64,000 nucleotides of DNA. Source: Candidatus Peregrinibacteria bacterium GW2011_GWF2_43_17. Lineage in GTDB: Bacteria; Patescibacteriota; Gracilibacteria; UBA1369; UBA12470. The stretch covers positions 20,686-84,685 of the forward strand of contig LCFW01000003.1 in NCBI GenBank assembly GCA_000999315.1, in the 5' to 3' direction. The notes under the pieces are model-generated. The model saw only the letters and a program-made list of their open reading frames with translations. It was not told the origin of the DNA and searched no databases. The translations under genes and the position numbers were made by a program. Shown here piece by piece: positions 3,689 to 57,080 of the stretch (positions are counted from its first letter, which is position 1; every line of letters begins with the position of its first letter).

Positions 3689-3764
3689 ACTCATAAACAA
3701 ATAGTCGCATAGTGAAATCCGGACTATTGGCCTATGAATCTATAAGTCTATCAACTACCCCATC

Positions 3765-4619
3765 ATGTTCTCTGGATTCGGATTAAAATTCTTCAATCTG
3801 GATGGTACGTCAACGCACCACATAATTAACGAAATCGCATATAAACATGCACTTAAAAAAACAAAGAAAAACGGCTTCCCGGGAATAATAAGCCTCGACC
3901 TTCATTCGGGATATTACGGTCCCGACGGAAAATGGTCCAAACCAATCAGCAAAGTTTCCGACCACATGTACAACCCTGCAACCGATTCGGGTAATGCCAT
4001 GAATAACGCTATCCAGTCTTACAAAATCGCATGCAAACAACTGAATTCGACAGATAAACTTGAAAAAAAACTTGGCAATCTCGCCTGCGCCCGCGGACTG
4101 CATTTTCTTGTGGACGGATTAACTCCCGCCCATCACATCGGTCACAAAGTTCTCCTGGCAAAAAGTGGCGCCGACTGGAACGATCCTTACTGGAACAGAC
4201 CGAAATCCAACACATACAACGTGCTTTTCATGCCCCACGGTCAATTTGAAAAAAAGTGCGCTTTTTATATGTTTCTTCATACAAAAAAAATTAGAAGGAA
4301 TTACGCCAAACTGCGTCAATCTCGATCGCCAATTTCGATTGCTAATGAAAACGACCTTGAGAATTTTCTTAAAAAACAAGCTCTGAAAATCCGCCTGACC
4401 GGCATTTATGAAAAATTTCTCTCTCATCAAAACATCAAAGACGAAGTGATTAAAGAACTTTTTCCGGAAATGATTTATACGGTGGAAATTTACATAAGAA
4501 GCCTGTACGCTTCAGCCGCACTCCCTCAAAAACAACACAAATACAGAGGAAAAATCGCCAGAACTTATCACGAAATCACAGCCAAAATCCCAAAAATTAA
4601 AATTCGCATACTGAAATGA
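3765..4619 (+). CDS. zinc-dependent phospholipase C-like protein (tentative)
   Basis: 284 aa. STHHIINEIAY and GLHFLVDGLTPAHHIGH resemble the SHLWIVNRAI and ALHYLGDVNQPMHA zinc-ligand motifs of Bacillus PLC. The stop overlaps the psd start (ATGA). Confidence 0.4.
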   Translation: MFSGFGLKFFNLDGTSTHHIINEIAYKHALKKTKKNGFPGIISLDLHSGYYGPDGKWSKPISKVSDHMYNPATDSGNAMNNAIQSYKIACKQLNSTDKLEKKLGNLACARGLHFLVDGLTPAHHIGHKVLLAKSGADWNDPYWNRPKSNTYNVLFMPHGQFEKKCAFYMFLHTKKIRRNYAKLRQSRSPISIANENDLENFLKKQALKIRLTGIYEKFLSHQNIKDEVIKELFPEMIYTVEIYIRSLYASAALPQKQHKYRGKIARTYHEITAKIPKIKIRILK

Positions 4620-8641: not shown

Positions 8642-11600
8642 ATGCCCAACCGCAAATTTCTCAAGAAAAACGCGTTTGAATATCCCCTGCCAAATCTGAT
8701 AGAAATCCAAACGGACAGCTACAACTGGTTCCTGAAAGAAGGGATCAGGGAGCTTCTGGATGAAATCTCTCCGATAACGGATTTCTCGGGTAAAAAACTC
8801 GAACTGCACTTCTTGGAACATTCAGTCGGAACTGCAAAATACGACCCGAAAGAGTGTAGGAATAAAAATACCACCTACGAAGCTCCTCTCAAAGTTCACG
8901 TTCAATTAATCAACAAGGAGTCCGGGGAAATCAAAGAACAGGACGTATTTTTGGGCGGGGTCCCTCTTATGACGGATGCGGGAACTTTTATCATAAATGG
9001 CATAGAAAGAGTTGTGGTAAGCCAATTGGTAAGATCTCCGGGTGTGTTTTTCGGCAGAAGCCCGCTGGCTCCTCAATATTGCGCAGCAAAAATCATCCCG
9101 AAAAGAGGTGCGTGGCTCGAAATCGAAACGGATAAAAAAGGTGTGATTACAGTCAAAATAGATCGCAAAAGAAAAATCTACTTAACAAGCCTGTTTAGAG
9201 TATTTGGATACGAAACGGATCAAAAAATACTCAATTTGTTTAAAGATTTGGTTCAAGACCCGACGAAAGATCACATATTTTTAACATTACAAAAGGACCC
9301 GGCTAAAACGGTTGATGAAGCTTACAAAAGCATTTACAAAAAAATCAGGCCCGGCGATTTGGCAACACCTGAAAACGCGAGAGCCCTTATCGAATCCATG
9401 TTCTTCGATTACAGAAAGTACGACATGGGCGCGGTTGCAAGATATAAATTAAACCGAAGATTCGGCCTAACAACTCCGAACAAGAAGAAATATCACACCT
9501 TCCAAGTGGACGATCTTGTTCAAATTATCAGACACCTTCTCGAATTAAATAAAGGAGAAGGAATCACTGACGACATAGACCACCTCTCAAACAGAAGAAT
9601 TCGAGCTGTCGGCGAACTCGTACAAAACAAGTTCCGAGTAGGCCTGCTTAGAACCGACAGAATAGCGAAAGACAGAATGACGGTAATGGAATTGGAAACC
9701 ATCACGCCAACTCAACTTATCAACTCACGACCGATAACGGCGGCACTGAGAGAGTTTTACGCAAGCTCGCAATTATCGCAATTCATGGATCAAACCAACC
9801 CTCTTGCCGAACTTGAACATAAGAGAAGATTGTCAGCCATGGGTCCGGGAGGTTTGAGCAGAGAAAGAGCCTCGTTCGACGTACGCGACGTACACGCATC
9901 TCACTACGGCAGAATCTGCCCGGTAGCGACACCTGAAGGTCCGAACATCGGTCTCGTAGTACATTTGGCAACTTACGCGAAACTAAACAAGTATGGATTT
10001 ATCGAAACTCCTTTTAGAAAGGTCTCAAAAGCATGTCCGAACAAAGCATCCGAGCTCGCAGGAAGAACAACGGCCGGCGAAATTAAAGACAACAAAGGAA
10101 AATCAATCGCAAAATCAGGAGATGTCATCACCGAAGCTCAAGCAAAAGCGATAGAAAAAATCAAAGACCTCAAAGAGATTCCCGTCAGAACTTACGTAAC
10201 AAAAGAGGTCGCGTATTACGATGCCGAAGACGAAATGGAACTTACGGTCGCCCAAGCCAACTCGGAACTCAACGAACAAGGAGAGTTCGTTCAAAACCGC
10301 GTTGCGGCAAGAGTAAAAAACGAAGCCATCTCGGCACACATAAAAGATGTCACACACATCGATATTTCACCGAAACAGATTGTTTCAATATCAACATCTT
10401 TGATCCCGTTCCTTGAGCACGACGACAACACTCGCGCATCAATGGGTTCGAACATGCAACGTCAAGCCGTACCTCTGCTCAAACCGCACGCTCCGATAGT
10501 CGGAACCGGTGTCGAAAAAATTTCGGCTGAAAGTTCCGGTCAAGTAATAACGGCGGACGGCCCGGGAACAATCACCTACGTTGACGCAAACGAGATTGTC
10601 GTTATGTACGATAACGGAAAGAAAAAAACTTACGACTTAAGAGTTTATGAACGCTCGAACCAAGCGACTTGCTTCCATCAAAGAGCGGTTTGCTTAAAAG
10701 GCTCGAAAGTCAAAAAAGGAGATGTATTGGCAGACGGAACCGCAACCGAAGATGGAGAATTGGCTCTCGGTCAAAACATGTTGGTAGCTTATTTAAGCTG
10801 GCAAGGTTACAACTATGAAGATGCCGTCATACTTTCGGAAAAACTTGTCCACAATGACTCGTACAGTTCGGTACACATTGAAACTTTTACAATAGATATC
10901 AGAGATACGAAACTCGGTCCCGAAATAGTCACGAGAGATATACCCAATGTAGGCGAAGCCAAATTAAAAGACCTCGACGATAAAGGCATCGTAAGAATCG
11001 GCGCATCGGTACGAGAAGGAGACATATTGGTAGGCAAAATCACACCAAAAGGCGAAACCGAATTAACAGCCGAAGAAAGACTTTTAAGAGCGATATTCGG
11101 AGAAAAAGCTCGCGACGTAAAAGACACATCTCTAAGACTCCCGGGCGGAGAAGGCGGGAAGGTCGTAAACGTGCAAATTTTCGATAGAAAAAACGGTGAC
11201 GAACTCCCAACCGGCGTCAACCAGCAAATCAAAGTTGACGTTGCTCAAACAAGAAGAGTTTCAGTCGGCGATAAAGTCGCAGGTCGTCACGGCAACAAAG
11301 GCGTAATTTCGATCATAGTACCTGTTGAAGACATGCCTCACTTGCCGGATGGACGCCCCGTAGACGTAGTCTTGAACCCGCTCGGCGTATCAAGTCGTAT
11401 GAATATCGGACAGATTTTGGAAACCCATTTGGGTTGGGCTTCCAAAGAACTTGGATTCAAAATCGCCACACCACCGCTCGAAGGTGTCACGAACGAAGAA
11501 ATAACTGGGTTATTGAAAGAAGCCAAACTGCCCATCACGGGTAAAATAGGACTTTACGACGGACGCACGGGCGAACCTTTCGATCACGAAACAACCGTCG

Positions 11601-12184
11601 GTATAGCTTATATAATGAAGCTCAATCACTTAATCGAAGATAAAATTCACGCTCGCTCCGTAGGCCCGTACTCTCTCGTAACTCAACAACCGCTGGGAGG
11701 CAAAGCGCAACACGGAGGTCAGAGATTCGGCGAAATGGAAGTTTGGGCGCTCGAAGCTTATGGCGCCGCCCATACCCTGCAAGAAATATTGACCATCAAA
11801 TCGGATGACGTTTACGGCAGAGCGAAAGCTTACGAATCAATCGTAAAAGAAGAACCGATCAAGAAACCTCGAACTCCGGAAAGCTTCAACGTTTTGGTCA
11901 AAGAACTTCAAAGCCTGGGATTGAATGTCGACTTGGTACAAAGCTCACCCGAAGCGGAAAGAAAAGCGGAAGAAGAGTATACGCAAGAAGAAGCTCTCGC
12001 AGATGAAGAGAATATAAATATTTTCAAAGGAGAAGAAGAGCTTGACGAAGGTGCGACGGGAACATCGAAAAAAGATCGCGCCGAAGAATTCGAGGACGAA
12101 ATCGAAGAAAAAGATTTGGATGAAATCGGAGATGAAGTTTACGACGAACTCGAAAAAATTCACAAAGGCAAAGCGAATAAATAA
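8642..12184 (+). CDS. rpoB: DNA-directed RNA polymerase subunit beta
   Basis: 1180 aa with canonical beta motifs (GRHGNKGVIS, NPLGVSSRMNIGQ, GGQRFGEMEVWALEAYGA). It carries an acidic C-terminal tail of about 80 aa. Confidence 0.98.
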   Translation: MPNRKFLKKNAFEYPLPNLIEIQTDSYNWFLKEGIRELLDEISPITDFSGKKLELHFLEHSVGTAKYDPKECRNKNTTYEAPLKVHVQLINKESGEIKEQDVFLGGVPLMTDAGTFIINGIERVVVSQLVRSPGVFFGRSPLAPQYCAAKIIPKRGAWLEIETDKKGVITVKIDRKRKIYLTSLFRVFGYETDQKILNLFKDLVQDPTKDHIFLTLQKDPAKTVDEAYKSIYKKIRPGDLATPENARALIESMFFDYRKYDMGAVARYKLNRRFGLTTPNKKKYHTFQVDDLVQIIRHLLELNKGEGITDDIDHLSNRRIRAVGELVQNKFRVGLLRTDRIAKDRMTVMELETITPTQLINSRPITAALREFYASSQLSQFMDQTNPLAELEHKRRLSAMGPGGLSRERASFDVRDVHASHYGRICPVATPEGPNIGLVVHLATYAKLNKYGFIETPFRKVSKACPNKASELAGRTTAGEIKDNKGKSIAKSGDVITEAQAKAIEKIKDLKEIPVRTYVTKEVAYYDAEDEMELTVAQANSELNEQGEFVQNRVAARVKNEAISAHIKDVTHIDISPKQIVSISTSLIPFLEHDDNTRASMGSNMQRQAVPLLKPHAPIVGTGVEKISAESSGQVITADGPGTITYVDANEIVVMYDNGKKKTYDLRVYERSNQATCFHQRAVCLKGSKVKKGDVLADGTATEDGELALGQNMLVAYLSWQGYNYEDAVILSEKLVHNDSYSSVHIETFTIDIRDTKLGPEIVTRDIPNVGEAKLKDLDDKGIVRIGASVREGDILVGKITPKGETELTAEERLLRAIFGEKARDVKDTSLRLPGGEGGKVVNVQIFDRKNGDELPTGVNQQIKVDVAQTRRVSVGDKVAGRHGNKGVISIIVPVEDMPHLPDGRPVDVVLNPLGVSSRMNIGQILETHLGWASKELGFKIATPPLEGVTNEEITGLLKEAKLPITGKIGLYDGRTGEPFDHETTVGIAYIMKLNHLIEDKIHARSVGPYSLVTQQPLGGKAQHGGQRFGEMEVWALEAYGAAHTLQEILTIKSDDVYGRAKAYESIVKEEPIKKPRTPESFNVLVKELQSLGLNVDLVQSSPEAERKAEEEYTQEEALADEENINIFKGEEELDEGATGTSKKDRAEEFEDEIEEKDLDEIGDEVYDELEKIHKGKANK

Positions 12185-12215: not shown

Positions 12216-12668
12216 ATGCGTAGCATCAATAAAGTAATCTTAATCGGCAACGTAACAAGAGACCCTTCCGTAAGACAAACTCCCAGCAATCAATCGGTTT
12301 GCACTTTCGGACTCGCGACTAACAGAAGATGGGTTACGGCGTCCGGTCAACAGCAAAACTCTGCGGAATTCCACGAACTCGTAGCTTGGTCCAAACTTGC
12401 CGAAACATGTGAAAAATACGTACGAAAAGGAAAACTTCTTTACATCGAAGGTTATCTCAAAACACGAAGCTGGGACACACCCGAAGGAGTCAAGAAATTC
12501 AAAACCGAAATAATAGTTCAAGATCTGATCATGCTGGAAAAAAGAGCAAGAACTCAAGAAGACGGCGAATATGTCACCGAAGACACACAACCCGCACCCG
12601 AAGAACCGAAAACGGACGAGCCAACACCTGAAGCGCCAACGGATATCGAATCCGACTTGGGACTTTAA
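12216..12668 (+). CDS. ssb: single-stranded DNA-binding protein
   Basis: 150 aa. OB-fold N-terminus (NKVILIGNVTRDPSVRQT...FHELVAWSKLAE), a P/E-rich linker and an acidic C-terminal tip DIESDLGL. Confidence 0.9.
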   Translation: MRSINKVILIGNVTRDPSVRQTPSNQSVCTFGLATNRRWVTASGQQQNSAEFHELVAWSKLAETCEKYVRKGKLLYIEGYLKTRSWDTPEGVKKFKTEIIVQDLIMLEKRARTQEDGEYVTEDTQPAPEEPKTDEPTPEAPTDIESDLGL

Positions 12669-12700: not shown

Positions 12701-15700
12701 ATGTTCGATAAGAAAAAAGACCAGTACTCCGGATTCGACTCGGTGGCGATATCGATCGCTTCACCGGACCAAATTCTTTCATGGTCTCATGGTGAAGTGA
12801 AAAAACCGGAAACCATAAACTACAGAACTCAAAAACCGGAAAAGGACGGCTTGTTCTGTGAAAGAATTTTCGGTCCCACGAAAAACTGGGAATGTTATTG
12901 CGGCAAATACAAGAGAATTAGATATAAAGGAGTGATTTGCGAAAAATGCGGCGTCGAAGTCACAAGATCGATAGTAAGACGCGAAAGGATGGGACATATC
13001 AAGTTGGCAGTTCCGGTAACACACATCTGGTTCTTGAGATCAACCCCGAGCAGAATCGGTCTTCTTCTCGATCTCCCGGTAAAAACAATGGAACAAGTGG
13101 TTTATTTCGCTTCATACATAATCACGCAAGTGGATGACAAAGCCAGAAAAGACGCGGAAGAACAACTTAAAGAAGAGTTTAAAAATTACAAAATTAAACA
13201 GAAAAAAGAGCTTCAAGAAAAAATTCGCGAAATCGAAAAAAACAAGGAACTTCCAAAAGAAGCTAAGGCAAAAAAGATTGAAGAACTTGAAAAAGAAGGT
13301 GCGATGAAAGCCGAAGAGCTTATAGAACAACATCAGAAAGCAAAAGAAGATATTTCAACCTTAAAAGTCGGCTCAATTCTTTCCGAAATTCAATTCAGAG
13401 AAATGTCCATGAAATTCGGACATCTTTTTAAAGCGGGAACCGGCGCCGAATCAATCAGGGATATAATCAAAGAATTGGATTTGAAAAAACTGTCCGACGA
13501 ATTGCAAAAAGAGTCGGAAAAAGCCAGCGGCCAAAAAAGAAAGAAGCTCGTAAAAAGAGCCAAGCTGGCAAGCGGTCTGGAAAAAGCCGGAATAAATCCC
13601 GAATGGATGGTTTTAACCATCCTTCCCGTAATTCCGCCGGATTTGAGACCGATGGTACAGCTTGACGGAGGAAGATTCGCAGCATCCGACTTAAACGACC
13701 TGTACAGAAGAGTAATCAACAGAAACAACAGGTTGAAAAAACTTATGGCAATCGGCGCTCCGGAAGTAATCTGCAGAAATGAAAAAAGAATGCTCCAGGA
13801 AGCCGTAGACACTTTGATAAACAACTCCGCAAGACAAGGTCGAACGGTATTCAACACGGGCGACAAACGCAAATTGAGATCTCTTTCCGATATGTTAAAA
13901 GGCAAGCAAGGTCGCTTCAGACAAAACCTCCTTGGTAAACGTGTAGACTACTCCGGTCGTTCGGTAATCGTAGTAGGTCCGAAATTGAAACTTCACCAAT
14001 GCGGTCTGCCGAAAACAATGGCACTGGAATTATTCAAGCCTTTTGTAATCGGAAGACTTATAAAAGAGAACTACGCGCACAACATCAAGATCGCAGAAAA
14101 ACTGATCATGTCCGGCAAAAAAGAGGTTTGGGATATTTTGGAAGAGATAACCAAAAATCACTACGTACTTTTAAATCGCGCTCCAACATTGCACAGACTT
14201 GGGATCCAGGCTTTCCAGCCGGTATTGGTGGAAGGCAAAGCCATCCAGGTACATCCGCTGGTTTGCGCGGCTTTCAACGCCGACTTCGACGGAGACCAGA
14301 TGGCGGTACATATTCCCCTTTCCAGATCAGCGCAAAAAGAGGCGAGAGAAATCATGTCTTCAGTCAAAAACTTATTGAAACCATCAGCCGGCACTCCGAT
14401 CACAACGGCAGCTCAAGATATGATCTTGGGTTGTTATTATTTGACTCAAGTTCACGATGGTAAAAAGGGTGAAGGAATGGTTTTCTCAAACGCAAAAGAC
14501 GCCATATTGAATCTCGAACTCGGCAATACTCATCTGCAATCAAAAATCAAGGTACGAATCGACGGAGAACTTATGGAAACTTCAGTCGGAAGAGTGATTT
14601 TCAATCAAATAATTCCAAAAGAACTCGGCTATAAAAACAAGGTGATGAAAAAAGGAGATTTGAAAAATCTCATCTCTGAATGTTTGGAAAAACTTGATCA
14701 AGACACAACCGCAAAACTTTCCGACGACATAAAGAAAATCGGTTTCGAATACGCAACCCTATCGGGTCTTTCAATAGCAAGTTCCGACATGCAAATACCG
14801 AAAGAAAAAGATGAATTGGTGGCACAAGCCGATGAAATTGTAAGAAAAATCAACAACCAATATTGGAAAGGATTAATCACGGAAGAGGAAAGATACAACA
14901 ATACGATTAAAATTTGGGCCAGAACAAAAAACGACATCGCAACAGCGATGATCGGAACTTTCGACGAAGAAAACGATATTTTCTACATGATTGACTCGCA
15001 AGCCAGAGGTAACTGGGGGCAAATCACACAGCTTTGCGGTATGAAAGGCTTGGTTGCTAATCCTGCCGGTAAAACTATCGAACTCCCCGTTAAATCCAAC
15101 TTGAAAGAAGGTTTCAGCATTTTGGAATACTTCATAGCCACTCACGGAGGAAGGAAAGGTAAATCGGACACGGCTCTAAAAACCGCCGAAGCCGGCTACC
15201 TGACACGCCGCCTCGTAGACGCCGTCCAAGATATCGTAATCAAAGAAGTGGACTGCGGCTCAAACCACAAACATCTTATCACCGAAGAAGAAAGCGAAAA
15301 GATCGGTGAAGCGTTTGCAAACAGAATTTTCGGTCGCACTCTCGCCGAACACGTAGTACACCCGGAAACGGGAGAAATCCTCCTTAAAAAAGGCTCCGAA
15401 CTGGACAATGCCGCGGTGAGAACAGTCGTAAACAATGACGTGGACCACATTTCGGTCAGATCGGTTATGGCTTGCCAAACAGAAGGTGGCATTTGCCAAA
15501 AATGTTATGGCAGAGATTTGGGCGGAAGCAAAACAATACAACTTGGAACGGCGGTAGGCATCATCGCCGCACAAAGTATCGGTGAACCTGGTACACAGCT
15601 AACCATGAGAACATTCCACATGGGTGGAGTTGCCGACAGCGGCGACATCACTCAAGGTTTGACTCGCGTGGAAGAACTTTTCGAAGCGCGCCCGCCAAAA

Positions 15701-16543
15701 ACTCCGGCCATAATCACCGAAGTCGCCGGTAAAGTTAAAATTAAACACAAAGCGGCAACCAACGAAATTACGATTATCAGCGAAGAGCCGATGGAGTTCA
15801 TCTACCACATCGCAAAAAACTATAAACTCGATATCAAAGAAGGCGACAAAGTGAAAGCGGGACAAGTTCTCGCAAAAGGCAAATCCAAGAAACAAATCGT
15901 AACGGCTGAAGGCAAAGGCGTTGTAAACAAAATCACGAAAACAACAATCGTACTTCTCAGCGAAGGCACAATCGAAAAAGCTTACGAGATCCCGGCAAAG
16001 AGAACTTTGAAAGTAAAAAACGGCGACATGGTTAAAGCCGGCACCGCACTTACATCGGGTCACGTCAATTTGAGAGAATTACAGCAAGTAACCAACATCT
16101 ACGCCGTACAAAAATACATCATGGCCGAAGTACAAAGTATTTACGCTTCGCAAGGGCAAACGATTAACGACAAACATATCGAAATCATCATCAGGCAAAT
16201 GTTCTCCAAAGCCAGAATCGCAGACCCCGGAGATACGGATTATATAGTCGGAGAAATTGTAGATGCTCTTAAACTCGAAAAAGCGAATACCGAAATAAAG
16301 AAAAAAGGGAAACAACAAGCGGAATTCGAAAGACTGCTCCTCGGTTTGACAAGAATAGCCCTGCACACATCGAGCTGGCTGTCGGCCGCATCCTTCCAAG
16401 AAACAATCAGAGTATTAGTCGAAGCGGCAACAACAAAACGAGTGGATGAGTTGAAAGGATTAAAAGAAAACGTAATAATCGGTAAATTAATCCCAACGGG
16501 TGCGATATTCAGAAAAAGAATGGGGATTAAAGAAGAAAATTAA
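12701..16543 (+). CDS. rpoC: DNA-directed RNA polymerase subunit beta'
   Basis: 1280 aa with the zinc motif [23 protein letters not shown], the catalytic NADFDGDQM motif, and [11 protein letters not shown]. Confidence 0.98.
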
Positions 16544-17595: not shown

Positions 17596-18093
17596 ATGAA
17601 AAAAATAGTCGTAACACTTTCGATCATCACATTACTGGCATCCGGTTGCGGAGAACTCAGCACACTCAAATACAACGACGCCGTAGTTGAGAAAATAAAT
17701 AGCGCTTCCGACGCTTTAAACAAAACCATAAGCTCCTACGACGGGAATATACCGGATCTCGTAACCGAAGAAACCGAGATAGATACGACCGAGATGAAAA
17801 CGGCATGGGAAGACGCGAAAACCGCCGTTGAAAACTGCAAAGCCTTAACAACGCTCGTCGGCAAAGACCAATTGCAACAAGCCGAAGTAAACGCCGAACT
17901 CGAAAATTACCTGTCGATAACGGAAGAATATCTTTCAAGTTACGAAAAAATGTTGACCTATTACGAAAATGATGAATACAAAGACACACCTGAAAAAGTC
18001 AGCGAGTATGATGCCGAAATATACGAAAAAAGCTCGTTGATTTTCGATTCAAACAACACGCTCGAAGATATTTTGGAAAAATATGTAAAATAA
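17596..18093 (+). CDS. small lipoprotein, function unknown
   Basis: 165 aa. Signal peptide with lipobox LLASGC (MKKIVVTLSIITLLASGC). The mature part is acidic and helical. Confidence 0.7.
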   Translation: MKKIVVTLSIITLLASGCGELSTLKYNDAVVEKINSASDALNKTISSYDGNIPDLVTEETEIDTTEMKTAWEDAKTAVENCKALTTLVGKDQLQQAEVNAELENYLSITEEYLSSYEKMLTYYENDEYKDTPEKVSEYDAEIYEKSSLIFDSNNTLEDILEKYVK

Positions 18094-18260
18094 GGGAACC
18101 TCTGAAAAATGTGGTTCCGTTACGAAATTCTCATTCTTTCGAGCGAAAATAGCGAAGACCGACGAAGTCGTATCGGAAGAAGATACGTCGAGAAGGTATG
18201 AGCTGTTTGCAGCCGAAAGATGGGAATTGCAGTAGGAAGCATGTTTTTCAGAGGTTCCCT
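18093..18260. other. long-stem structured intergenic element A (candidate ncRNA or degenerate mobile element)
   Basis: AGGGAACCTCTGAAAAA (18093-18109) is the perfect complement of TTTTTCAGAGGTTCCCT (18244-18260). The two arms enclose about 134 nt that contain CGACGAAGT followed by the hairpin CGTATC-GGAAGAA-GATACG. There is an alternative local pairing, GGAACC/GGTTCC (18095-18118). Confidence 0.55.
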
Positions 18261-18292: not shown

Positions 18293-18320
18293 TTGACTTT
18301 GATTTGCCCATCCCTATAAT
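18293..18320 (+). promoter_or_regulatory. candidate sigma70-type promoter of fusA-tuf
   Basis: TTGACT (18293-18298), 16-nt spacer, TATAAT (18315-18320). This is the same architecture as the rpoB promoter. Confidence 0.6.
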
Positions 18321-38194: not shown

Positions 38195-38290
38195 GCGCAA
38201 GGAAGCCTGCCTGTCGGCAGACAGGAATGCAATCTCCTAATACTTTCCAGTATCACTTCGTCGTCGTTCCTTGAACTGCTATAATATCTG
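38195..38290 (-). repeat. structured intergenic element B (copy of the core found in element C)
   Basis: 38238-38279 is the reverse complement of 50054-50095 with one mismatch in 42 nt. CAAGGAA (38198-38204) pairs with TTCCTTG (38267-73). There is also the hairpin CCTGTC-GGCA-GACAGG (38210-38225). Confidence 0.6.
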
Positions 38291-38361
38291 CGATATTCCA
38301 ATTCGGAACCAATAGTGTGCATAGACCCTAGTCTACCTGGTCTATTAGTCTACCCCCCTAT

Positions 38362-48624: not shown

Positions 48625-49920
48625 CTATACAACCTTCCCTCCGCAAACCACTTTCTCCGGCCACCCGACCAACTTCCACCCATCATAAGGCGACCAACCA
48701 CACTTGGTAGCATATCCATCCGAACCGACAACTCCCTCTTTTGACATATCAACAACCACCAAATCAGCATCGTACCCGGCCTTCACAAACCCCTTTCCGA
48801 CAAGCCCGAAAATCTCCGCCGGCTTTTCACACATCGCCTCAACCATCCTCTCAAGCGACAATTCGCCATGATTAACGGCATCAAGCATTAACGGGAGTAA
48901 AGTCTCAAGTCCCGGCACGCCGGATGGAGCCTCCAAATAAGGTTTTTTCTTCTCATCCAATGTATGCGGAGCATGATCGGTCACGACGATATCAATTAAC
49001 CCACTCTTGAGAGCAGACCACATCGCCAGCCTATCCTCTTCACTGCGTATCGGCGGATTTATTTTCACGAAATTGCAGTCATAATAAGTCACGGAATCGC
49101 TTCGCTTCCCGTGACTGGCATAAGCATCCTTATTCAAAAACAGATGATGCGTCGCAACTTCGGCGGTTATATTTTTATCTTTAAATTTCTTCAAAGCCTC
49201 CATCTCTTTTTTCGTACTCACATGGGCAATATGCAACTTAGTCCCATGCTTTTTCGCCAAGTGCAAAGCTTTTTTAATCGCGATATAAACCGTTTCATCA
49301 TCACGAATCAAAGAGTGCACGGAAGGACTTAAATCGCCCTCAAACTCTTTTTTTCTTTGCTCGATTCTCGCCTCATCTTCGGCATGAACTACTAACGGCA
49401 AACCTTTCGCAAACGCAAAAATCTTCTCCAAATCCGCATCATCACCAACCACCAACCCACCTGTAGATTTACTCATAAACAATTTAACACCACAAGCATC
49501 TTTCGCCTTCTTGAGCTCGACCAAATTATCCCCGGTAGCCGCAATAAAAAATTTGTGGCCGCATTTCATACGTCCTTTCGCCAATTTATATTTAGCGGCA
49601 AGCCTCTCCGCAGTATCAATCGAAGGATTGTTGTTCGGCATATCAAGAACCGTCGTAACTCCACCCTTCAAAGCCGCACTTGAACCGGTTTCAAAATCTT
49701 CTTTATGCGTCGCACCGGGCTCTCGCAGATGCACATGCGCGTCAATCACACCGGGGATGATAAACTTGCCTTTGCAATCTATGATTTTTGCATCTTTATC
49801 TGAAATTTTCGCGGAAACTTTGACGATTTTCCCACCTTCAACCAAAACATCAGCCTTGAGTTTGCCTTTCGAGCTAACAACTGTGCCATTTTTTAAAAGA
49901 AGTTTCTTCATCACCTTCAT
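48625..49920 (-). CDS. pyrC: dihydroorotase
   Basis: GVIDAHVHLREPG and VTDHAPH metal-ligand motifs. Start ATG 49920 or 49911 is preferred over the track start at 49974. Confidence 0.92.
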   Translation of the reverse strand: MKVMKKLLLKNGTVVSSKGKLKADVLVEGGKIVKVSAKISDKDAKIIDCKGKFIIPGVIDAHVHLREPGATHKEDFETGSSAALKGGVTTVLDMPNNNPSIDTAERLAAKYKLAKGRMKCGHKFFIAATGDNLVELKKAKDACGVKLFMSKSTGGLVVGDDADLEKIFAFAKGLPLVVHAEDEARIEQRKKEFEGDLSPSVHSLIRDDETVYIAIKKALHLAKKHGTKLHIAHVSTKKEMEALKKFKDKNITAEVATHHLFLNKDAYASHGKRSDSVTYYDCNFVKINPPIRSEEDRLAMWSALKSGLIDIVVTDHAPHTLDEKKKPYLEAPSGVPGLETLLPLMLDAVNHGELSLERMVEAMCEKPAEIFGLVGKGFVKAGYDADLVVVDMSKEGVVGSDGYATKCGWSPYDGWKLVGWPEKVVCGGKVV

Positions 49921-50004: not shown

Positions 50005-50249
50005 TAGGCAGTGTTCACATATATTTTTTGCAGATGGAAGCTACAGATTTTGTGCAGTTCAAGGCACGACGACGAAGTGATACTGGAAAGTATTACAAGG
50101 AGGAGTCCCTTCGGGTTGAAACATAACATATCTATCTTCTGTGTTACTCGTCGTTTCTGTACCTTTTAGGTACTGCGCACTCCTCGTGTCGTGAATCCAG
50201 ACATGTTATGCGCCAAACCATCGTAAAAAATATATGTGAACACTGCCTA
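50005..50249. mobile_element. MITE-like / long-stem structured element C
   Basis: 25-nt perfect terminal inverted repeat TAGGCAGTGTTCACATATATTTTTT (50005-50029 vs 50225-50249), extendable by 5-7 more pairs. The outermost TA on each side is compatible with a TA target duplication. The 195-nt interior has several helices and the 42-nt core shared with 38238-38279. Confidence 0.4.
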
Positions 50250-50502: not shown

Positions 50503-53500
50503 TTATACCCCCGCCTCGGCATAGAAACTATTCTCGTAGTCCTCCTGAGCGATCACGATTGTGATAATTTTCGCCATTTCGCCGAGAGCGATATCGCGTT
50601 CGGGTCTGAAATAACCGTCACCGTAACCGGAAACAATACCTCTCGTATACGCATACACAATGTAAGGCGCATACCAAGAGTCCAAATCAACATCCGGAAA
50701 CGGATTTGAAGGCAAATAATAATAATCCAAAAGTTCATCACCATATCGTTCTTCGATATCATCGCCGGTGAGTCCAAAAATAATCTTGAGCGCCTCCGCA
50801 CGATTGACCAAATTATCCGGCTTGAAAGTGGAATCATCATACCCGGTTATAACCCCCATATTATACGCAGTTAGAACATAAGCGGCCCCCTCGCTCGCAA
50901 CGGTCATATCGACAAACGGCATGCTTTCCATATGCGTATCTATCTCTATGTTTATCAAATCCATCGCCGACATCAAGAACTCGATTCTGGTAACTTTTTC
51001 ATCGGGGTCGAAAAGATAACTTATTATCTGCGCCTCTGTCGTATCGCCCGCGTTGATTTCATTTATAAGAGTCGTCTGATAAAAATCTTTCAAATAAGAT
51101 TCAGACCAATGTTGATCGAGTTGCGGCACAACGTCGATCGTCCACGTCTCCTCGAATATTTTTTCCGTTTCTTCTACGGTTTCTCCGACCGTAATTTCGA
51201 TAACAACTGCAATCTCTTCCTCAACATCTTCCGATTCGGAGATTTCTTCAACCTCTTCCTCAAGCTCATCGGAGATTTCTTCGATTTCATTATCTTCAGT
51301 ATTATCATATCCGCCTCCGCTCGACGCACCACCTCCGGTAATTTCCCCGTAAGCGGGATTCTCATAGTTTTTCGTTGTTACGGTAATGGTTGAGCTCGTC
51401 AAATTGTTACCTTTCGTATCGAGAGCTTTTATATAACAAATATATGTCGTGCCTTTCACCAATCCCGACATCCCCATTGATGACGCCGTCATCGTATTGC
51501 TACTGCCATACAAAGTATAAGTAGTGGTTGAAGATGTTCTATAGTAAATTTCATATTTATCAAAATTGGTTTCGGAAGTTACACTGTTCCATCCCAAAGT
51601 GAAACTCGTTTCAACAATGTTCGTAGCGGTCAGTGAAGAAGCCAGCCCTCCGCTAGGAACAACCTGGTCAAGCACAAAATTATCGGAAGCTACCGACGAT
51701 CCGGCGGCAATTCCGTCATAAGGAGTCGCTCTCACCTGCGCCGTTGCGATATTTTGTGCCGTAACATCCTCCGCCGATGCCCATATAACGGTTATCGTAT
51801 TTGCTCCGGGAGATGTAACGATATATCCATTGCTATTACCAACTTGATAAGTGTTGTCATTTTCAAGATTATAATTGCCATATGTAGCTCCGGTTCCCGT
51901 CGTCTCAGAAAGAGTCGCCTTGTTCCATCCCGCACCGACATTATATTCAACAAGTGCCTGCAAAGTATCGTCATTATCCGCATCGTCGATTACAAATGTA
52001 ATTGTCACATTACTTGTTCCGTCCGTAGCTTGCACGGCTGTAACGGTTGCCGCCGTAGGCGTTTGATTGGTAACGAAGCTGATCGCAGATCCGCATCCTT
52101 CGTAACCATAGTTATCCGCAGAACATATTTTTGCATAATAAGTCAGACCCGGGGTTAATCCCGTAACCGTAGTTGTAGCCGTAGCCTTCGTTGCAAGAAG
52201 CACGTCGTTCGGATCGTTATCCCATTCTATAGCTGTACCGTTTCTGTTCGTAACATCGGTCTGATTCGTTCCATACCAAATTTCGTAATGGTTGAAATGA
52301 GATTCGGTTGATACTGTCCATGTCAAAATACCTGTCGTTCCACTTCCTCCTGTTTTAGTAAATGACTCCGGCGTCGTTGGAGCAACGCCGTCTACAATGA
52401 ACGCATCTGAAGTTACGGCGGCACCGGCTTCGATCCCGTCATGTGGAGTTATTTTGAGCTGTACGGTTTCAAGATCGATTCCAAGCGCATCAACATCCGA
52501 TCTCCATACGACAGAAACGGTATTTGCTCCGGAAGATGACGTGATATACCCATTGCTGTTACCAACTTGGTAAGTATCATCGTTTTCGACATCGAACCAA
52601 CCGTACGTCGAACCTGTACCACTCGCTTCATCTATTGTCGCCTTGTTCCATCCGGCACCAATATTATATTGGATAAGTACCCGTCCGAGATCCGTATCAT
52701 CGGCATCGTCAAAAACAAACTGTATGTTTACATACTGATTACCGCTTCCGGACTGGGCAATCGTTACTCCGCCGATTATCGGTCTGCCGTTGTTATTGGC
52801 AGTTGCAACCGTCAGCGTTGTTTCATTACCGTATCCGTCAACAGCCCATATCTTCGCGTAATAAGTTGTATTTTCCAAAAGTCCGGTAATCGTAGTTGTT
52901 GCCGTTGTCGCAGTCGCAAGTGTTGCATCATTCGGATCATTATCCCACTCGGATGCTGTTCCGTTTCGATTCCCGACATCCGTTTCGTTCGTCCCGTACC
53001 AAACCTCGTAATGGTTGAAATGGCTGTCCGTTCCGGCAGTCCATATCCATGTGATCGTGGAAGAGGTCGTCGCTCCACCGGCAAATCCGGCGAAACCGCC
53101 TGCAGGACCTGCGTTATCGATTATGAAGTCCGACGAAGCCCCCGGAGTGCCGATGTCATACCCGTCGTAAGGCGTAACTCTGATCTGTGCCGTAGCCAAA
53201 TCCGCAGTCGGTGCGTCAGTCTTCGAATTCCATATCGCCGTAATGGTATTTGCTCCCGGAGATGTCAAAACATAGCCATTGCTATTACCAACCTGATAAG
53301 CATTATCATTCTCAAGATTGAACTGACCATAGGTCGAGCCGGTACCACTCGTCTCCGATAATGTCGCCTTCAGCCATCCCGCTCCAACATTATATTCAAC
53401 AAGAGCGCGATTGGTATCGTCATCATCGTCATCAATGATAAAAGATATGTTTACAACTCCTGTTCCATCTGTTAATTCGACCGCCGTTATCGTTGCAACC

Positions 53501-56073
53501 GTTGGCGCCACATTGAATATCCACCCAAGGTTATTTCCAGAATTAACGGAATTCGTACCTTTGGCGATGATATCGTTTCCACTGGAAGCATCGGAATCTT
53601 TTACATCAACATACGAAATCGCCGAAGTCCCGCTTATATTGAGAAGCCACTGACTTGCATCGGCACTGCTCCTCAGAACAATCGTGTTCCCGGCAGATCC
53701 CGTCAGTGTAAACGCTCCCGTTACCATCTGAGTTGTCGCCGCTGTAAACACAAGCGATTTCGCCACCGTTGTACATGTGAAGTTGAAGAAGCTTGTACTG
53801 CCTGCAATTGTTCCCGTCCCCGTTGCGTCGTCAAAAACAACAGTACCAGAACTCGAATTGAATGTGCCGGTATTGGAAAAATTCCTACCGACATTTATCT
53901 GATAATTCCCGCCGGTTACATTGAATGTTCCTGCGGTAATCGTAAGACTTCCGTTTACATCAAGAGCGACACCGAGTTCGAAAATGTCCGTAGCACCATC
54001 CGTAGAGTTAATAATGAGATTGTAATAGGTCGCAGAAAGGGTTGTAACAGTATATGTATCCGCTCCGGCATCCCCATCTCCCGTAAACTCAATTGTTCCA
54101 GAGTTTGTATCCATTGCCGGCAAAGACAAGGTTCCCGATCCTCTCCATCTCAAAGTACCTTCGTTTGAAAACGTTGTACTAACCGTAAGTCCATTTGCAC
54201 CAAGCGATAAAATACCCGATGTGATTGTCGCATTAGCAACTATCTCGGTTGCACCCAATGTAAACACTGACGAAACCCCGCCATTAATCACAAGCGTCGC
54301 GTTCGTCATTGTCCAATCCTTCATCGTATATGGACCTGCCGCGCCGTCATAAGTGACAGTGGAACCAGAAGCAAAAGTTGGAGTCCCGGTTACAGTCTCC
54401 CCACCTTGAAGCTGAAGATTTCCACCTGAAGCGACCGTGAAGGTTCCGCCTGATTCAATAAATGTATAGCCTGAAATATCAAATGTGCCTGCTGTAATAG
54501 TCAAATCCTGATTCACGGCGTCCATTGTTAATTCTGATGCAAGATTCACTGCTCCGCCGGTTTTATTGACAGTGATATCAGCATTGAATACACCAACAGC
54601 GCCAAGCGTAAATGTCTGCGTTGCGTCGCCAGTCAATACAATCGTAGCTGTTCCGCCGTCATAACCGGAACCTACAACAACATCTCCAGCGACGGAAATA
54701 CTTCCGGTAGCTGGAATCGATGATTGAGACACTAATCCATCTGTTAAAGTAAGCGTTCCTGTAACAGTCAATGTATCGCCATTGGCAATTTGTTTTGTCC
54801 AACCTGTGTCAGTACTGAAAGTTAAATTATAAAAAGTTTCAGCTGTATTCACATCAATAGTCGCAGTTCCATTTCCACTATTAAAATTAACCGTGCTAGT
54901 ACCTTCTGTCACTGACCCAGATGTCTGTGCCCAATTATGCGCGAGATTCATGGTACCTGAACCTAAATTTAGCGTTCCACCCGAAAGTGTAAAAACGCAT
55001 GTTGAACAAGATAATGTTGTAGTTGTCCCATTATTGTATGTGCCACCCGAAATCGTCATATCCCCCCCAAAAGTGACTGTCCCAGCTCCTCCATTGAATG
55101 TACCGCCGGATTGAGTAAAAGTCTTTGTATAATGAGAAAATCCGATAGCCCCAACGCCTCCGTTATAAGTACCGGCTGCAATTATCATATGATTCTCAAA
55201 AATTAAAGTTCCGCTTGATGGACCTGTGACGACCGTATCTGCCCCATTTAATTTTAATCCTGTCATATATCCGCTTGATAGTGTTGCTGTGCCAGAACCT
55301 TCGAGATTGATTTGCGCAGTACCACCATCAAAATTAGCGCCTTGAGAAATAGCGCCAGTAACAACTATGGTTCCACCAGCTGGGATAGTCGACTGCTCTA
55401 AATTACCATCTGTTAAAGTAAGCGTACCAGTAACCACAAATGTTTCATTGACTGTTATCGATATAGAACAACCCGCACTAGGATTCATTTGAAAATTATA
55501 AAAAGTTTCATCAGCTTCAACATTTGTACTATCAAAAGTCCACGACTGGCTACCATTTGAATCAAAAACAACTGTTCCATTGTTGTGTTGCCAAGCATTT
55601 GATCCTGCACCTTCCGCTATCGTAAATGTATTGAAAAAATATATATTACCTGATGTGGAAATAAAGGTTGCACCTGAATTAAGAGTAAAGGATCCATTAA
55701 TGTCTATATCTTGCGTTGATCCTGAAAAAATACCATCAGCCTGATCATAATTACTTATACCTACAGTTAAGGTAGCCGCTTGTGTGATTGTATTTGTATA
55801 ACCAGTATTAATATCAATCCCCCTCACATTGGCCGCTGTATTGATAGTGCATGGCGTATTTCCGGTACCGTCAAAAGTGGCAATATCAGCTGTGCCAGGC
55901 ACTGATCCAGTACTCCAGTTCCCACCTGTACCCCAGTTAACGCTTTCATCACCTTGCCATGTAACAACAGCGGCGCTCGCACTCGCAATCCCGACCGTAC
56001 AAGCCAATACCAAAGCCGAAAATACAAAACACATCTTCAGAAACCCCTTAAACCCAAACGATAGCGATCCCAT
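50503..56073 (-). CDS. giant cell-surface protein (beta-helix-like repeats, 3 x Ig/FN3-like modules, acidic linker, C-terminal SLH domains)
   Basis: Signal peptide MGSLSFGFKGFLKMCFVFSALVLACTVGIASASA from ATG 56073. About 850 aa are G/T/S/N-rich with T-x-T/GGT repeats. Three modules of about 240 aa each end in HFNHYE[VI]WYGTN..TYYAKI. An E-rich linker follows. The C-terminal SLH-type motifs include GYDDSTFKPDNLVNRAEALKII and SGYGDGYFRPERDIALGEMAKII. Confidence 0.85.
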   Translation of the reverse strand: MGSLSFGFKGFLKMCFVFSALVLACTVGIASASAAVVTWQGDESVNWGTGGNWSTGSVPGTADIATFDGTGNTPCTINTAANVRGIDINTGYTNTITQAATLTVGISNYDQADGIFSGSTQDIDINGSFTLNSGATFISTSGNIYFFNTFTIAEGAGSNAWQHNNGTVVFDSNGSQSWTFDSTNVEADETFYNFQMNPSAGCSISITVNETFVVTGTLTLTDGNLEQSTIPAGGTIVVTGAISQGANFDGGTAQINLEGSGTATLSSGYMTGLKLNGADTVVTGPSSGTLIFENHMIIAAGTYNGGVGAIGFSHYTKTFTQSGGTFNGGAGTVTFGGDMTISGGTYNNGTTTTLSCSTCVFTLSGGTLNLGSGTMNLAHNWAQTSGSVTEGTSTVNFNSGNGTATIDVNTAETFYNLTFSTDTGWTKQIANGDTLTVTGTLTLTDGLVSQSSIPATGSISVAGDVVVGSGYDGGTATIVLTGDATQTFTLGAVGVFNADITVNKTGGAVNLASELTMDAVNQDLTITAGTFDISGYTFIESGGTFTVASGGNLQLQGGETVTGTPTFASGSTVTYDGAAGPYTMKDWTMTNATLVINGGVSSVFTLGATEIVANATITSGILSLGANGLTVSTTFSNEGTLRWRGSGTLSLPAMDTNSGTIEFTGDGDAGADTYTVTTLSATYYNLIINSTDGATDIFELGVALDVNGSLTITAGTFNVTGGNYQINVGRNFSNTGTFNSSSGTVVFDDATGTGTIAGSTSFFNFTCTTVAKSLVFTAATTQMVTGAFTLTGSAGNTIVLRSSADASQWLLNISGTSAISYVDVKDSDASSGNDIIAKGTNSVNSGNNLGWIFNVAPTVATITAVELTDGTGVVNISFIIDDDDDDTNRALVEYNVGAGWLKATLSETSGTGSTYGQFNLENDNAYQVGNSNGYVLTSPGANTITAIWNSKTDAPTADLATAQIRVTPYDGYDIGTPGASSDFIIDNAGPAGGFAGFAGGATTSSTITWIWTAGTDSHFNHYEVWYGTNETDVGNRNGTASEWDNDPNDATLATATTATTTITGLLENTTYYAKIWAVDGYGNETTLTVATANNNGRPIIGGVTIAQSGSGNQYVNIQFVFDDADDTDLGRVLIQYNIGAGWNKATIDEASGTGSTYGWFDVENDDTYQVGNSNGYITSSSGANTVSVVWRSDVDALGIDLETVQLKITPHDGIEAGAAVTSDAFIVDGVAPTTPESFTKTGGSGTTGILTWTVSTESHFNHYEIWYGTNQTDVTNRNGTAIEWDNDPNDVLLATKATATTTVTGLTPGLTYYAKICSADNYGYEGCGSAISFVTNQTPTAATVTAVQATDGTSNVTITFVIDDADNDDTLQALVEYNVGAGWNKATLSETTGTGATYGNYNLENDNTYQVGNSNGYIVTSPGANTITVIWASAEDVTAQNIATAQVRATPYDGIAAGSSVASDNFVLDQVVPSGGLASSLTATNIVETSFTLGWNSVTSETNFDKYEIYYRTSSTTTYTLYGSSNTMTASSMGMSGLVKGTTYICYIKALDTKGNNLTSSTITVTTKNYENPAYGEITGGGASSGGGYDNTEDNEIEEISDELEEEVEEISESEDVEEEIAVVIEITVGETVEETEKIFEETWTIDVVPQLDQHWSESYLKDFYQTTLINEINAGDTTEAQIISYLFDPDEKVTRIEFLMSAMDLINIEIDTHMESMPFVDMTVASEGAAYVLTAYNMGVITGYDDSTFKPDNLVNRAEALKIIFGLTGDDIEERYGDELLDYYYLPSNPFPDVDLDSWYAPYIVYAYTRGIVSGYGDGYFRPERDIALGEMAKIITIVIAQEDYENSFYAEAGV
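51365..53510 (-). repeat. three diverged tandem coding repeats of about 0.72 kb inside the giant gene
   Basis: Unit boundaries are near 53508, 52790, 52070 and 51365. The protein units share YN[VI]GAGW.KAT..E.SGTG.TYG...ENDN.YQVGNSNGY and HFNHYE.WYGTN. At the DNA level they are clearly diverged. Confidence 0.8.
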
Positions 56074-56156
56074 ATAATTTTTATTATTTTTTGATCTATT
56101 AATAATAACACAAATCCGCCCGCAACACAAGCCGCAGCCGGGCTCCCCGACCTCCA

Positions 56157-57080
56157 CTACAACCACATTTCCATCGCCGCCATCCTCACCGCCACCCCGT
56201 TCGTCACCTGTTCGAAATACTTCGCGCGCAGATCGCTGTCAACCTCCGGCAACAACTCGTCGATCCTCGGCAAAGGATGCATGACGATCGCGGTCTTTTT
56301 AAGCAACTTCATCAGCCCGGCATCTATCACGTAAACCCCTTTATACTGCAAATATTCGTTTTCTGAAGCAAATCTCTCCTGTTGAATTCGCGTACACGCC
56401 AAAACATCCAGCTCGCCTATCACTTTGTCCAAATCGACGGTTTCGAAAACCTCATGTCCGCAATTTTTCAGCTTGTTTACAATCTCTCTCGGCATCGCCA
56501 ACTCTTTCGGCGATACGAAAACGAATTTCAACCCTTTAAAATTCTTCAAAAGTTCACACTGCGAATGCGGCACTCTCCCGTTTTTCAAATCTCCTACCAT
56601 CCCGACAGTCAACCCGTCCACACCGCCAAACTCCTTAAAAATGGTAAAAGCATCAAGCAACCCTTGCGTCGGATGATCGTTCGCCCCATCTCCCGCATTT
56701 ATAACCGGCACCGTCGCCCCTTTCGCCAACTCGGCAACACTCCCCGCCTCCGAATGTCTCATCGCGATAATATCGGCAAAACACGACACGACTCTTCCCG
56801 TATCGCTCAAGCTCTCCCCCTTTTTCGCAGACGAAGTTTCTTTCATCTGGGCATTACTGATAACAGATCCGCCAAGTCGGAGCATCGCAGTTTCGAAACT
56901 GAAACGAGTTCTGGTCGAAGGCTCGTAAAAAAGCGTCGCCAAAACTTTGCCCTTCATCTCGTCGGAAACCTTTTCTTTCCGCGCATACGGGAGCATTTTT
57001 TCGGCTTTCTTCATTATTTTCAAAATCTCTTCTTTTGTAAAATCTTTTGAGCTGAGCAAATTTGATTTTTTTTCAAACAT
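56157..57080 (-). CDS. pyrB: aspartate carbamoyltransferase catalytic subunit
   Basis: STRTRFSFE, HPTQ and HPLPR motifs. ATG 57080 (MFEKKSNLLSSKDFTKEE) is preferred over the track start at 57131. Confidence 0.93.
   Translation of the reverse strand: MFEKKSNLLSSKDFTKEEILKIMKKAEKMLPYARKEKVSDEMKGKVLATLFYEPSTRTRFSFETAMLRLGGSVISNAQMKETSSAKKGESLSDTGRVVSCFADIIAMRHSEAGSVAELAKGATVPVINAGDGANDHPTQGLLDAFTIFKEFGGVDGLTVGMVGDLKNGRVPHSQCELLKNFKGLKFVFVSPKELAMPREIVNKLKNCGHEVFETVDLDKVIGELDVLACTRIQQERFASENEYLQYKGVYVIDAGLMKLLKKTAIVMHPLPRIDELLPEVDSDLRAKYFEQVTNGVAVRMAAMEMWL

Follow-up and report, generated by a model that had tools for sequence, protein, structure and literature searches.

Genes and intergenic elements in the window

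Three copies of a repeated element lie in the window, by which we mean the whole 64-kb stretch of DNA that was analysed (Table 1). The copy near 50 kb lies between the dihydroorotase gene pyrC (48625-49911, minus strand) and a gene for a 1887-aa repeat protein (50503-56166, minus strand). The copy near 38 kb lies between rpsI, which ends at 38192, and trmD, which starts at 38396; trmD directly follows rpsI in the sampled relatives as well. The copy near 18 kb begins at the stop codon of an ORF (17596-18093, plus strand) that encodes a 165-aa lipoprotein-like protein with no Pfam match and that lies between rpsG and fusA. Directly after this copy, at 18293-18320 and ahead of fusA, is a near-consensus sigma-70-type promoter (TTGACT-16-TATAAT, 11/12). 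A terminal-repeat search found no further copy in the window.

The giant ORF next to the 50-kb copy (1856-1887 aa) contains three tandem repeats of ~723 nt that are 69-76% identical (51781-53446). Together, the 50-kb copy and the giant ORF sit between pyrC and a pyrB-like ORF (56157-57080, a candidate by its size and by the synteny of relatives); in relatives, pyrB and pyrC are adjacent. Elsewhere in the window, an ssb gene (Pfam SSB; 12216-12668, plus strand) is in an unusual place, between a 1180-aa ORF (8642-12184, probably rpoB) and rpoC (12701-16543). The window has no tRNA or tmRNA gene.

Table 1. Coordinates of the three copies and of their parts within the window. R1 is the unit model described in the text.
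Feature	Position	Strand	Evidence or remark
50-kb copy, nearly complete two-unit element, 245 nt	50005..50249	+ (polarity of unit 1)	nhmmer, E 5.5e-61
Closing stem P1, left arm (TAGGCAGTGTTCACATATATTTTTT)	50005..50029		25/25 complementary to 50225-50249; expected by chance 0.01
Loop strand S1 (TTCAAGGCACGACGACGAAGT, 50058-50078) and apical hairpin P3 (50077-50096)	50054..50096	+	R1, 69.4 bits (50057-50113)
Loop strand S2a (AAGGAGGAGT)	50097..50106	+	S2b block (GUGACRCAG) deleted in this copy
Unit 2 (S4, hairpin P5 GTACCT/AGGTAC, S5), probably a diverged inverted homologue of unit 1	50139..50196	-	R1, E 0.0017 on the minus strand; wobble pairs of the stem on the same strand
Closing stem P1, right arm	50225..50249		Pairs with 50005-50029
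38-kb copy (degenerate left P1 arm, stem P2, S1, P3, short remnant of S2)	38224..38331	-	nhmmer, E 4e-16; R1, E 6.3e-9; 3' boundary approximate
Second copy of the 42-nt core	38238..38279	-	Inverted-repeat search of the window
18-kb copy (26-bp closing stem, inner stem, CGACGAAGU, hairpin CGUAUC/GAUACG, UCGAGAAGG)	18093..18260	+	Covariance model, E 4.7e-4 (18160-18205)

The initial annotation had singled out a 42-nt repeat. As it described, GCAGTTCAAGGCACGACGACGAAGTGATACTGGAAAGTATTA (50054-50095, plus strand) is the reverse complement of 38238-38279 at 41 of the 42 positions, with a single C/A mismatch at 50065. This pair is the top long-range inverted repeat of the window; the runners-up are at most 39 nt long, with ~74% identity. 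Both copies are intergenic (one lies between the start of pyrC at 49911 and the stop of the 1887-aa ORF at 50503, and the other in the rpsI-trmD spacer), and the match is far beyond chance, with an expectation of ~1e-14 (by arithmetic over ~4e9 position pairs). Weaker similarity was said to continue for about 10 nt, to CAGAT at 50044 and 38290. CAGAT is indeed found at both places, but the similarity reaches much further 5' (nhmmer, 38331-38243 on the minus strand).

The 42-nt match is not a free-standing motif: it consists of loop strand S1 and hairpin P3 of a larger element, in whose family it is the most conserved region. So in place of the small free-standing antisense RNA gene that had been proposed, we find one loop strand and the apical hairpin of a palindromic repeat element of 168-315 nt. 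Three features had been missed: a perfect 25-nt inverted repeat encloses the 50-kb copy, the 38-kb copy is truncated, and a second unit lies in inverted orientation at 50139-50196.

As RNA, the 50-kb copy is predicted to fold with -101.7 kcal/mol (z = -8.9 relative to shuffled sequences). The S2b block is absent, and so is the 3' strand of P2. This copy also contains a 17-codon ORF with a UUG start after the sequence AAGGAGG; the encoded peptide is neither hydrophobic nor conserved, and this is the sole such ORF.

The 38-kb copy is a truncated 5' half. It lacks unit 2 and the right arm of P1, shares ~90-108 nt with the family, is 94% identical over 88 nt to a complete copy (L009, from a metagenome contig), and has no significant fold (z = -1.55). 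The spacer between rpsI and trmD is 203 nt in the window and 82-149 nt in four related lineages with the same gene order (TrmD 74-81% identical). In these relatives the spacer contains not even a remnant of the element, so the 38-kb copy is a lineage-specific insertion.

The 18-kb copy is bounded by an inverted repeat of 26 nt (88%) and is predicted to fold as a rod, with -85.7 kcal/mol on the plus strand versus -62.0 on the minus strand (z = -12). CGACGAAGTCGTATC and GATACGTCGAG are common to it and to the copies from Elusimicrobia, at the same offset. The 18-kb copy had been suggested to be a relative because of an analogous hairpin; the suggestion stands, as a covariance model that was built without this copy finds it (E 4.7e-4). 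It is a monomer, that is, a shorter, one-unit relative of the two-unit family.

Anatomy and conservation of the family

Complete elements have the order P1 (a closing stem of ~20-33 bp); unit 1, with stem P2, loop strand S1, hairpin P3, and loop strand S2; a small CCC-NNN-GGG hairpin; and unit 2, with stem P6, loop strand S4, hairpin P5, and loop strand S5. The terminal repeats that form P1 are found in the 50-kb copy (25/25), in the 18-kb copy (26 nt), and in L009, L039, L035, and L036 (30-33 nt). In unit 1, S1 is UUCAAGG-N-ACGACGACGAAGU and S2 is CGAGGAGGAGUGACRCAG, with the variable hairpin P3 between them. In unit 2, S4 is GUUGCUCGUCRCU, P5 is GUACC/GGUAC, and S5 is GCGCUCCUCGCGCC. The basic unit thus has a core of ~60 nt, 5'-(A/G)UUCAAGG-N-ACGACGACGAAG-[variable 6-8-bp hairpin]-(C)GAGGAGGAGUGACRCAG-3'. 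In the predicted structure, this core forms a large, purine-rich internal loop that is held by a long stem of free sequence.

The loops and the stems evolve very differently. Between the copies from CPR bacteria (CPR-type) and those from Elusimicrobia (Elusimicrobia-type), the loop strands are 91% (S1), 84-95% (S2), 94-100% (S5), or 70-80% (S4) identical. For the stems, the corresponding values are 42-58% (P1), 29-43% (P2), and 39-43% (P6), and the stems are still paired (~95%). Even within each type, the arms of P1 are just 64-82% identical. In P1, 21 of the 32 pairs have changed on both sides, with 95% of cells paired; this count rests on four sequences and is indicative rather than a formal test of covariation, although the signal in P1 is very large. 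P2, P3, P5, and P6 covary too. Across the whole predicted structure, 94% of positions are paired, as compared to 81% if the columns are shuffled (none of 500 shuffles reached 94%) and 35-48% if the partners are slid. Conservation purely at the DNA level would have counted against the proposal of a folded RNA, but the stems change and yet stay paired.

The apical hairpin of the 42-nt repeat is a case in point. At 50 kb it is GUGAUACU-GGAA-AGUAUUAC (50077-50096), with one G.U pair, and the 38-kb copy of it has seven pairs. It was rightly seen as a genuine helix, since it covaries among copies (GUGAUACU/AGUAUUAC, UUGUACU/AGUACAA, and CGUAUC/GAUACG). It had also been described as having a GNRA-type loop. 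This description carries no weight because the GGAA loop and the stem sequence are specific to the lineage: the loop of P3 is not conserved among copies, being CUCUGU in L036 and GGUA in L039, and L009 has another hairpin altogether.

The elements have no conserved ORF, and differences in the lengths of the hairpins break the reading frames. Nor did we find a recurring promoter or terminator inside the copies, or U-tracts following the stems.

Two units of opposite polarity

From unit 1 of five copies, we built a covariance model (R1) that includes neither the 38-kb copy nor the 18-kb copy. R1 matches both of these (E 6e-9 and 4.7e-4, respectively). It also matches the region of unit 2 on the opposite strand, in the 50-kb copy, in L036 (E 0.0014), and in L055 (E 0.0043), and more weakly in L024, L039, and L009. 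These matches are individually marginal (E from 0.0014 to 0.67), and what makes them persuasive is that they fall at the same place and on the same strand in six copies. By this similarity, we take unit 2 to be a diverged, inverted copy of unit 1.

Wobble pairs distinguish the two strands, because a G.U pair becomes an A-C mismatch on the other strand. In the stem of unit 2, all 14 strand-specific wobble pairs are G.U on the strand that does not carry S1 (with up to 6 in 26 pairs); the count for the S1 strand is zero. The wobble pairs of the unit-1 stems, of P3, and of the 18-kb copy favor the strand of S1. The closing stem P1 has no strand bias (7 versus 4). Meanwhile, the folding energies of the whole element and RNAalifold slightly favor the strand opposite to S1 in several copies, and the copies disagree. 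We considered that the element might have a single functional strand, but we rejected this: the conflict is resolved if the element carries two oppositely oriented units, which explains why the energies and RNAalifold disagree about the strand. That unit 2 is an inverted copy of unit 1 also explains the odd distribution of the wobble pairs and why S2 is complementary to S4 and S5. From the strand-specific wobble pairs, we conclude that every unit has a polarity of its own and is under constraint as a single strand.

The original proposal was for an RNA that is read from the plus strand at 50 kb and from the minus strand at 38 kb. The polarity of unit 1 and its wobble pairs agree with these strands, but the single G.U pair that had been cited is not sufficient by itself to choose a strand.

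A candidate for a second type of monomer lies at ~3680-3800 (minus strand) of L039, just upstream of tRNA-Cys (R1, E 0.009; fold z = -4.2). This region has a closing stem of ~20 bp, an apical hairpin CCGUAC/GGUACGG, and the motifs CAAGG and UGACACAG.

Distribution, insertion sites, and decay

The window is from a CPR bacterium of the Gracilibacteria/Peregrinibacteria group that lives in groundwater; proteins identical to its own are present in aquifer metagenomes, and their homologues are attributed to Patescibacteria, Gracilibacteria, or Peregrinibacteria. Homologues of the element, of 214-315 nt, were found in metagenome contigs (L009, which is the same as L021, and L024), in a Gracilibacteria MAG (L039), in Elusimicrobia MAGs (L036 and L037), and in unclassified MAGs (L035 and L038). 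The family thus appears to be scattered sporadically over uncultivated, groundwater-type bacteria of at least two phyla; as the scans demanded an exact match to S1 and yielded ~10 independent copies, this distribution is under-sampled and biased. A distant relative may be present in a Thermoleophilia MAG (L034, 4028-4240, plus strand), where a 27-nt match to S1 (GTGCAGTTCAAGG-N-ACGACGACGAAGT; the unit model gives 27.8 bits) precedes a very stable but unrelated hairpin with a 33-bp stem (z = -7.6) in a divergent promoter region. This locus was itself picked by an exact match to S1.

The copies lie in unrelated contexts: after stop codons (the 18-kb copy and L024), between pyrC and the giant gene (the 50-kb copy), and between tRNA-Lys and tRNA-Glu (L036). 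In L036 (3849-4269; also in L055 and L056), the element fills the gap between the two tRNA genes with zero spacing and on the strand opposite to them, and there is a promoter-like site upstream of tRNA-Lys. Given its position in this tRNA operon, the element would be transcribed with the operon and released by tRNA-processing enzymes. No neighboring gene is common to the flanks of the copies, and the window contains housekeeping genes only.

In ~200 kb from relatives (L040 to L054), neither nhmmer nor the unit model found a copy; the proteins of these element-free relatives are 63-78% (dihydroorotase), 74-81% (TrmD), or 70-81% (Lon) identical to the reference proteins. We considered that, in Elusimicrobia, the element might be a syntenic housekeeping gene, but it is absent near tig-clpP-lon in relatives whose Lon is 70-81% identical. 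One of the assemblies from relatives has an oddity of its own. In GCA_964538865.1 (L043 as compared to L044 and L045, at ~650-2805 and elsewhere), several genes (for an RNase_T-domain protein, ribosomal proteins, and SecY) are replaced by strings of short ORFs. These genes are intact in sister contigs, which suggests that the strings reflect frameshift-type assembly errors and not biology.

The 50-kb copy and L024 are 84% identical, lie in different contexts, and have complementary deletions. In L037, L038, and L057, the contig breaks off within the element, and four of seven assemblies (L004 to L007) stop at the 18-kb stem, as is expected for a multi-copy repeat. The element thus breaks metagenome assemblies, and annotation pipelines miss it.

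The CPR-type elements end in (C/T)TAG...CTA(G/A), with TA on both flanks. Because the flanking TA...TA also belongs to the palindrome, a target-site duplication could not be distinguished from it; the Elusimicrobia-type copies show no clear duplication. We did not find an empty site in a near-identical strain (the one compared proved to be the same strain, and there the element is present).

Searches against known families and mobile genes

The initial annotation judged the 42-nt repeat to be unlike known RNAs, and the searches bear this out. With Rfam 15, nothing in the window reached the gathering score, and nothing over the element was found at E up to 10; in L034, L035, L036, and L039, there was nothing at E up to 1. 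ARAGORN found no tRNA or tmRNA within the element. Resemblances to a K-turn, a T-loop, a group I or group II intron core, the CR-I region of RNase P, or the hairpin ribozyme failed inspection by eye and have no support from Rfam. In a full-text search of the literature, we found no description of this element family.

A phage or plasmid origin was rejected: blastn found no match of the L036 element in collections of plasmids and phages, and viral contigs had no matches to the patterns S1, S2, S4...S5, or S1+GGAA. There is no transposase (HUH or DDE) or reverse transcriptase in the window or near any of 10 loci, no integrase in the window, and no gene for a RAYT (a Y1 HUH transposase) in 64 kb of the window's genome or in the 8-22-kb pieces of the other genomes. 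Among the scan matches, there is no element with an ORF between S1 and S5, and no parent element with matching ends.

The long closing stem recalls the a1/a2 feature of retrons. However, we rejected the noncoding RNA of a retron, DGR, or DRT, as no locus has a reverse transcriptase (the neighbors are pyrC, trmD, fusA, tRNAs, ClpP, and Lon) or a repeat of the TR/VR type. We also rejected a type I toxin-antitoxin system or small ORF (no hydrophobic ORF and no reading frame is conserved); an intervening sequence of rRNA (all copies are intergenic, and the copy in L039 is 1.5 kb from the 16S gene and outside it); and a ribosomal-protein leader or riboswitch (copies often run against their neighbors, and orthologous loci lack the element).

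What the element may be

The copies are repeated, are inserted sporadically at unrelated intergenic sites, and decay by deletion. The sequences also indicate that selection acts on the single-stranded, folded form, whether this is RNA or single-stranded DNA, since the stems covary, G.U (or G.T) pairs occur only on each unit's own strand, and the loops are nearly invariant. The elements are probably non-autonomous mobile DNA of the MITE or REPIN kind. Putting these together, on balance we favor the reading that the family is an unannotated, MITE/REPIN-like, mobile palindromic element that is constrained in its single-stranded form. The conserved loop might be what a trans-acting factor recognizes (whether a transposase, a nuclease, or an RNA-binding protein), in which case the stems would need only to pair. 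The inverted dimer would present one unit in its functional polarity on either strand, and hence in any read-through transcript, regardless of the orientation of insertion. In RNA, the long terminal duplex could be a site of RNase III-type cleavage or an insulating stem, and it might make insertion into operons, behind stop codons, or between tRNA genes nearly free of cost. What speaks against the comparison to MITEs is that the termini are the least conserved part, which is the opposite of a classical MITE.

We also considered that the copies might be genes for a trans-acting structured RNA, that is, a new large noncoding RNA that could be catalytic or could scaffold proteins. Two loop-bearing arms on a four-way junction would touch via S2:S4/S5, the closing stem would be a processing or stabilizing helix, the partial copies would be pseudogenes, and mobility would be incidental. 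Nearly invariant loop blocks of ~20 nt with covarying stems, over two phyla, are a hallmark of functional RNAs; a 15-bp S2:S4 helix, 98% paired and with a conserved tandem U.G/G.U, is predicted by RNAalifold; folding z-scores are -8 to -12; and the copy in the tRNA operon of L036, with its promoter-like site upstream, would be released precisely by tRNA-processing enzymes. However, the complementarity of S2 to S4/S5 arises automatically if unit 2 is an inverted copy of unit 1, and these blocks never vary on both sides (11 pairs are invariant and 4 have one-sided changes). Furthermore, close relatives lack the element, and its copies are non-syntenic, numerous within a genome, and often deleted; they have no recurring promoter or terminator; and their orientation to the neighbors is mixed. 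We consider such an RNA gene to be unlikely. A variant of this idea, which we rate as quite unlikely, is a protein-free selfish RNA that spreads horizontally: a new class of large noncoding RNA or ribozyme that would be "SINE/retrozyme-like" or would mobilize itself. The two arms would dock on the four-way junction, the conserved loops would be an active or recognition center, and the RNA would propagate in CPR bacteria and Elusimicrobia, whose genomes are streamlined.

At the other extreme, the element might act purely as DNA and have no role as RNA: by analogy with REP/REPIN and RAYT, with the ends of IS200/IS605, and with integron attC sites, the conserved blocks would be sites for binding or cleavage by a protein, and the hairpins would form in single-stranded DNA during replication or transfer. 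This would fit with each unit having its wobble pairs on the strand that runs inward from that unit's end, with the two-fold symmetry (which would suit a dimeric enzyme), with the lack of strand bias in the closing stem, and with the lack of an internal promoter. GTAG is a feature of REPs, CTAG/TA is the target of IS630, and the ends of the CPR-type elements recall both. On the other hand, none of the 10 loci has a gene for an HUH or DDE transposase nearby, and G.T is poorly tolerated in DNA hairpins as compared to G.U in RNA, yet the stems of unit 2 hold up to 6 such pairs in 26. A purely DNA-level role seems doubtful to us. We give very little credence to a cis-acting host element that regulates fusA, trmD, or pyrC (such as a bidirectional terminator, a stabilizer of mRNA 3' ends, or a processing site within operons). 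P1 does begin at the upstream gene's stop codon in the 18-kb copy, in L024, and apparently in L039, copies are found between convergent or co-directional genes, and a long stem would block 3' exonucleases; but the neighboring genes differ at every locus, the orthologous loci of relatives lack the element, no U-tracts follow the stems, and a core of ~200 nt that is conserved over phyla far exceeds what termination needs.

Comparison with known repeats

The Correia elements of Neisseria (CREE/NEMIS) and the RUP elements of Streptococcus pneumoniae are bacterial MITEs: non-coding elements of 100-300 bp with inverted repeats of ~25 bp, flanked by TA. They lie in intergenic regions or at the ends of genes, in either orientation, and are co-transcribed with their neighbors, and deletion derivatives are common. 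RNase III cuts the hairpin that is made by the terminal repeats of Correia elements. Our family is similar in being a short, non-coding, multi-copy element with terminal inverted repeats at its ends, and orthologous sites have it in some lineages but not in others. However, in Correia and RUP, the terminal repeats are conserved, the interior is free, and each is confined to one genus, whereas here it is the internal loops that hardly change and the termini that vary (42-58% identity between phyla). Also, we see few copies per genome, and there is no known parent of the IS630 type.

REPs have units of 20-40 nt, and REPINs are ~100 nt; their genomes contain hundreds of copies, along with a RAYT gene. 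Like REPINs, our elements have a hairpin unit that forms an inverted doublet (in six copies), arms that evolve in a compensatory manner, extragenic locations after stop codons or between convergent genes, and a short conserved motif beside the stem, and a monomer form exists (the 18-kb copy and possibly L039:3680-3800). Unlike in REPINs, each unit spans 120-170 nt and includes a large internal loop that is conserved, and the copy number seems to be low.

The ERIC (or IRU) elements are imperfect palindromes of 127 bp from enterobacteria. They have a conserved core and insertion variants, and they are found in mRNAs with orientation-dependent effects. They share with our family the long imperfect palindrome and the conserved core, but they are confined to related gamma-proteobacteria and have neither the two-unit architecture nor the contrast in conservation between loops and stems. 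Among large RNAs, HEARO (the omega-RNA of IsrB) and ROOL/GOLLD are the most comparable: they are RNAs of 200-600 nt with conserved loops and covarying stems, sometimes multi-copy, sporadic over phyla, and near tRNA genes. But our elements have no match in the cmscan against Rfam 15 and no associated ORF, and the palindromic two-unit design and the terminal inverted repeat are foreign to those RNAs.

We therefore group the element with the interspersed palindromic repeats, because of its likeness to Correia, RUP, ERIC, and REPIN elements; it differs from a MITE in that its termini are not conserved and no parent insertion sequence was found, and it does not belong to an Rfam family or to the retrons, type I toxins, or rRNA inserts. 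The pattern of conservation (nearly invariant loops and free termini) is the reverse of that of classical MITEs and suggests either that a trans-acting factor reads the element as a folded single strand or that the element is a functional RNA in its own right. If true, each of these would offer a new way to study gene flow between CPR bacteria and neighboring organisms, and a candidate class of structured RNA for Rfam. Most known interspersed palindromic repeats come from cultivated proteobacteria and firmicutes; these elements are in the tiny, repeat-poor genomes of uncultivated groundwater lineages from two phyla.
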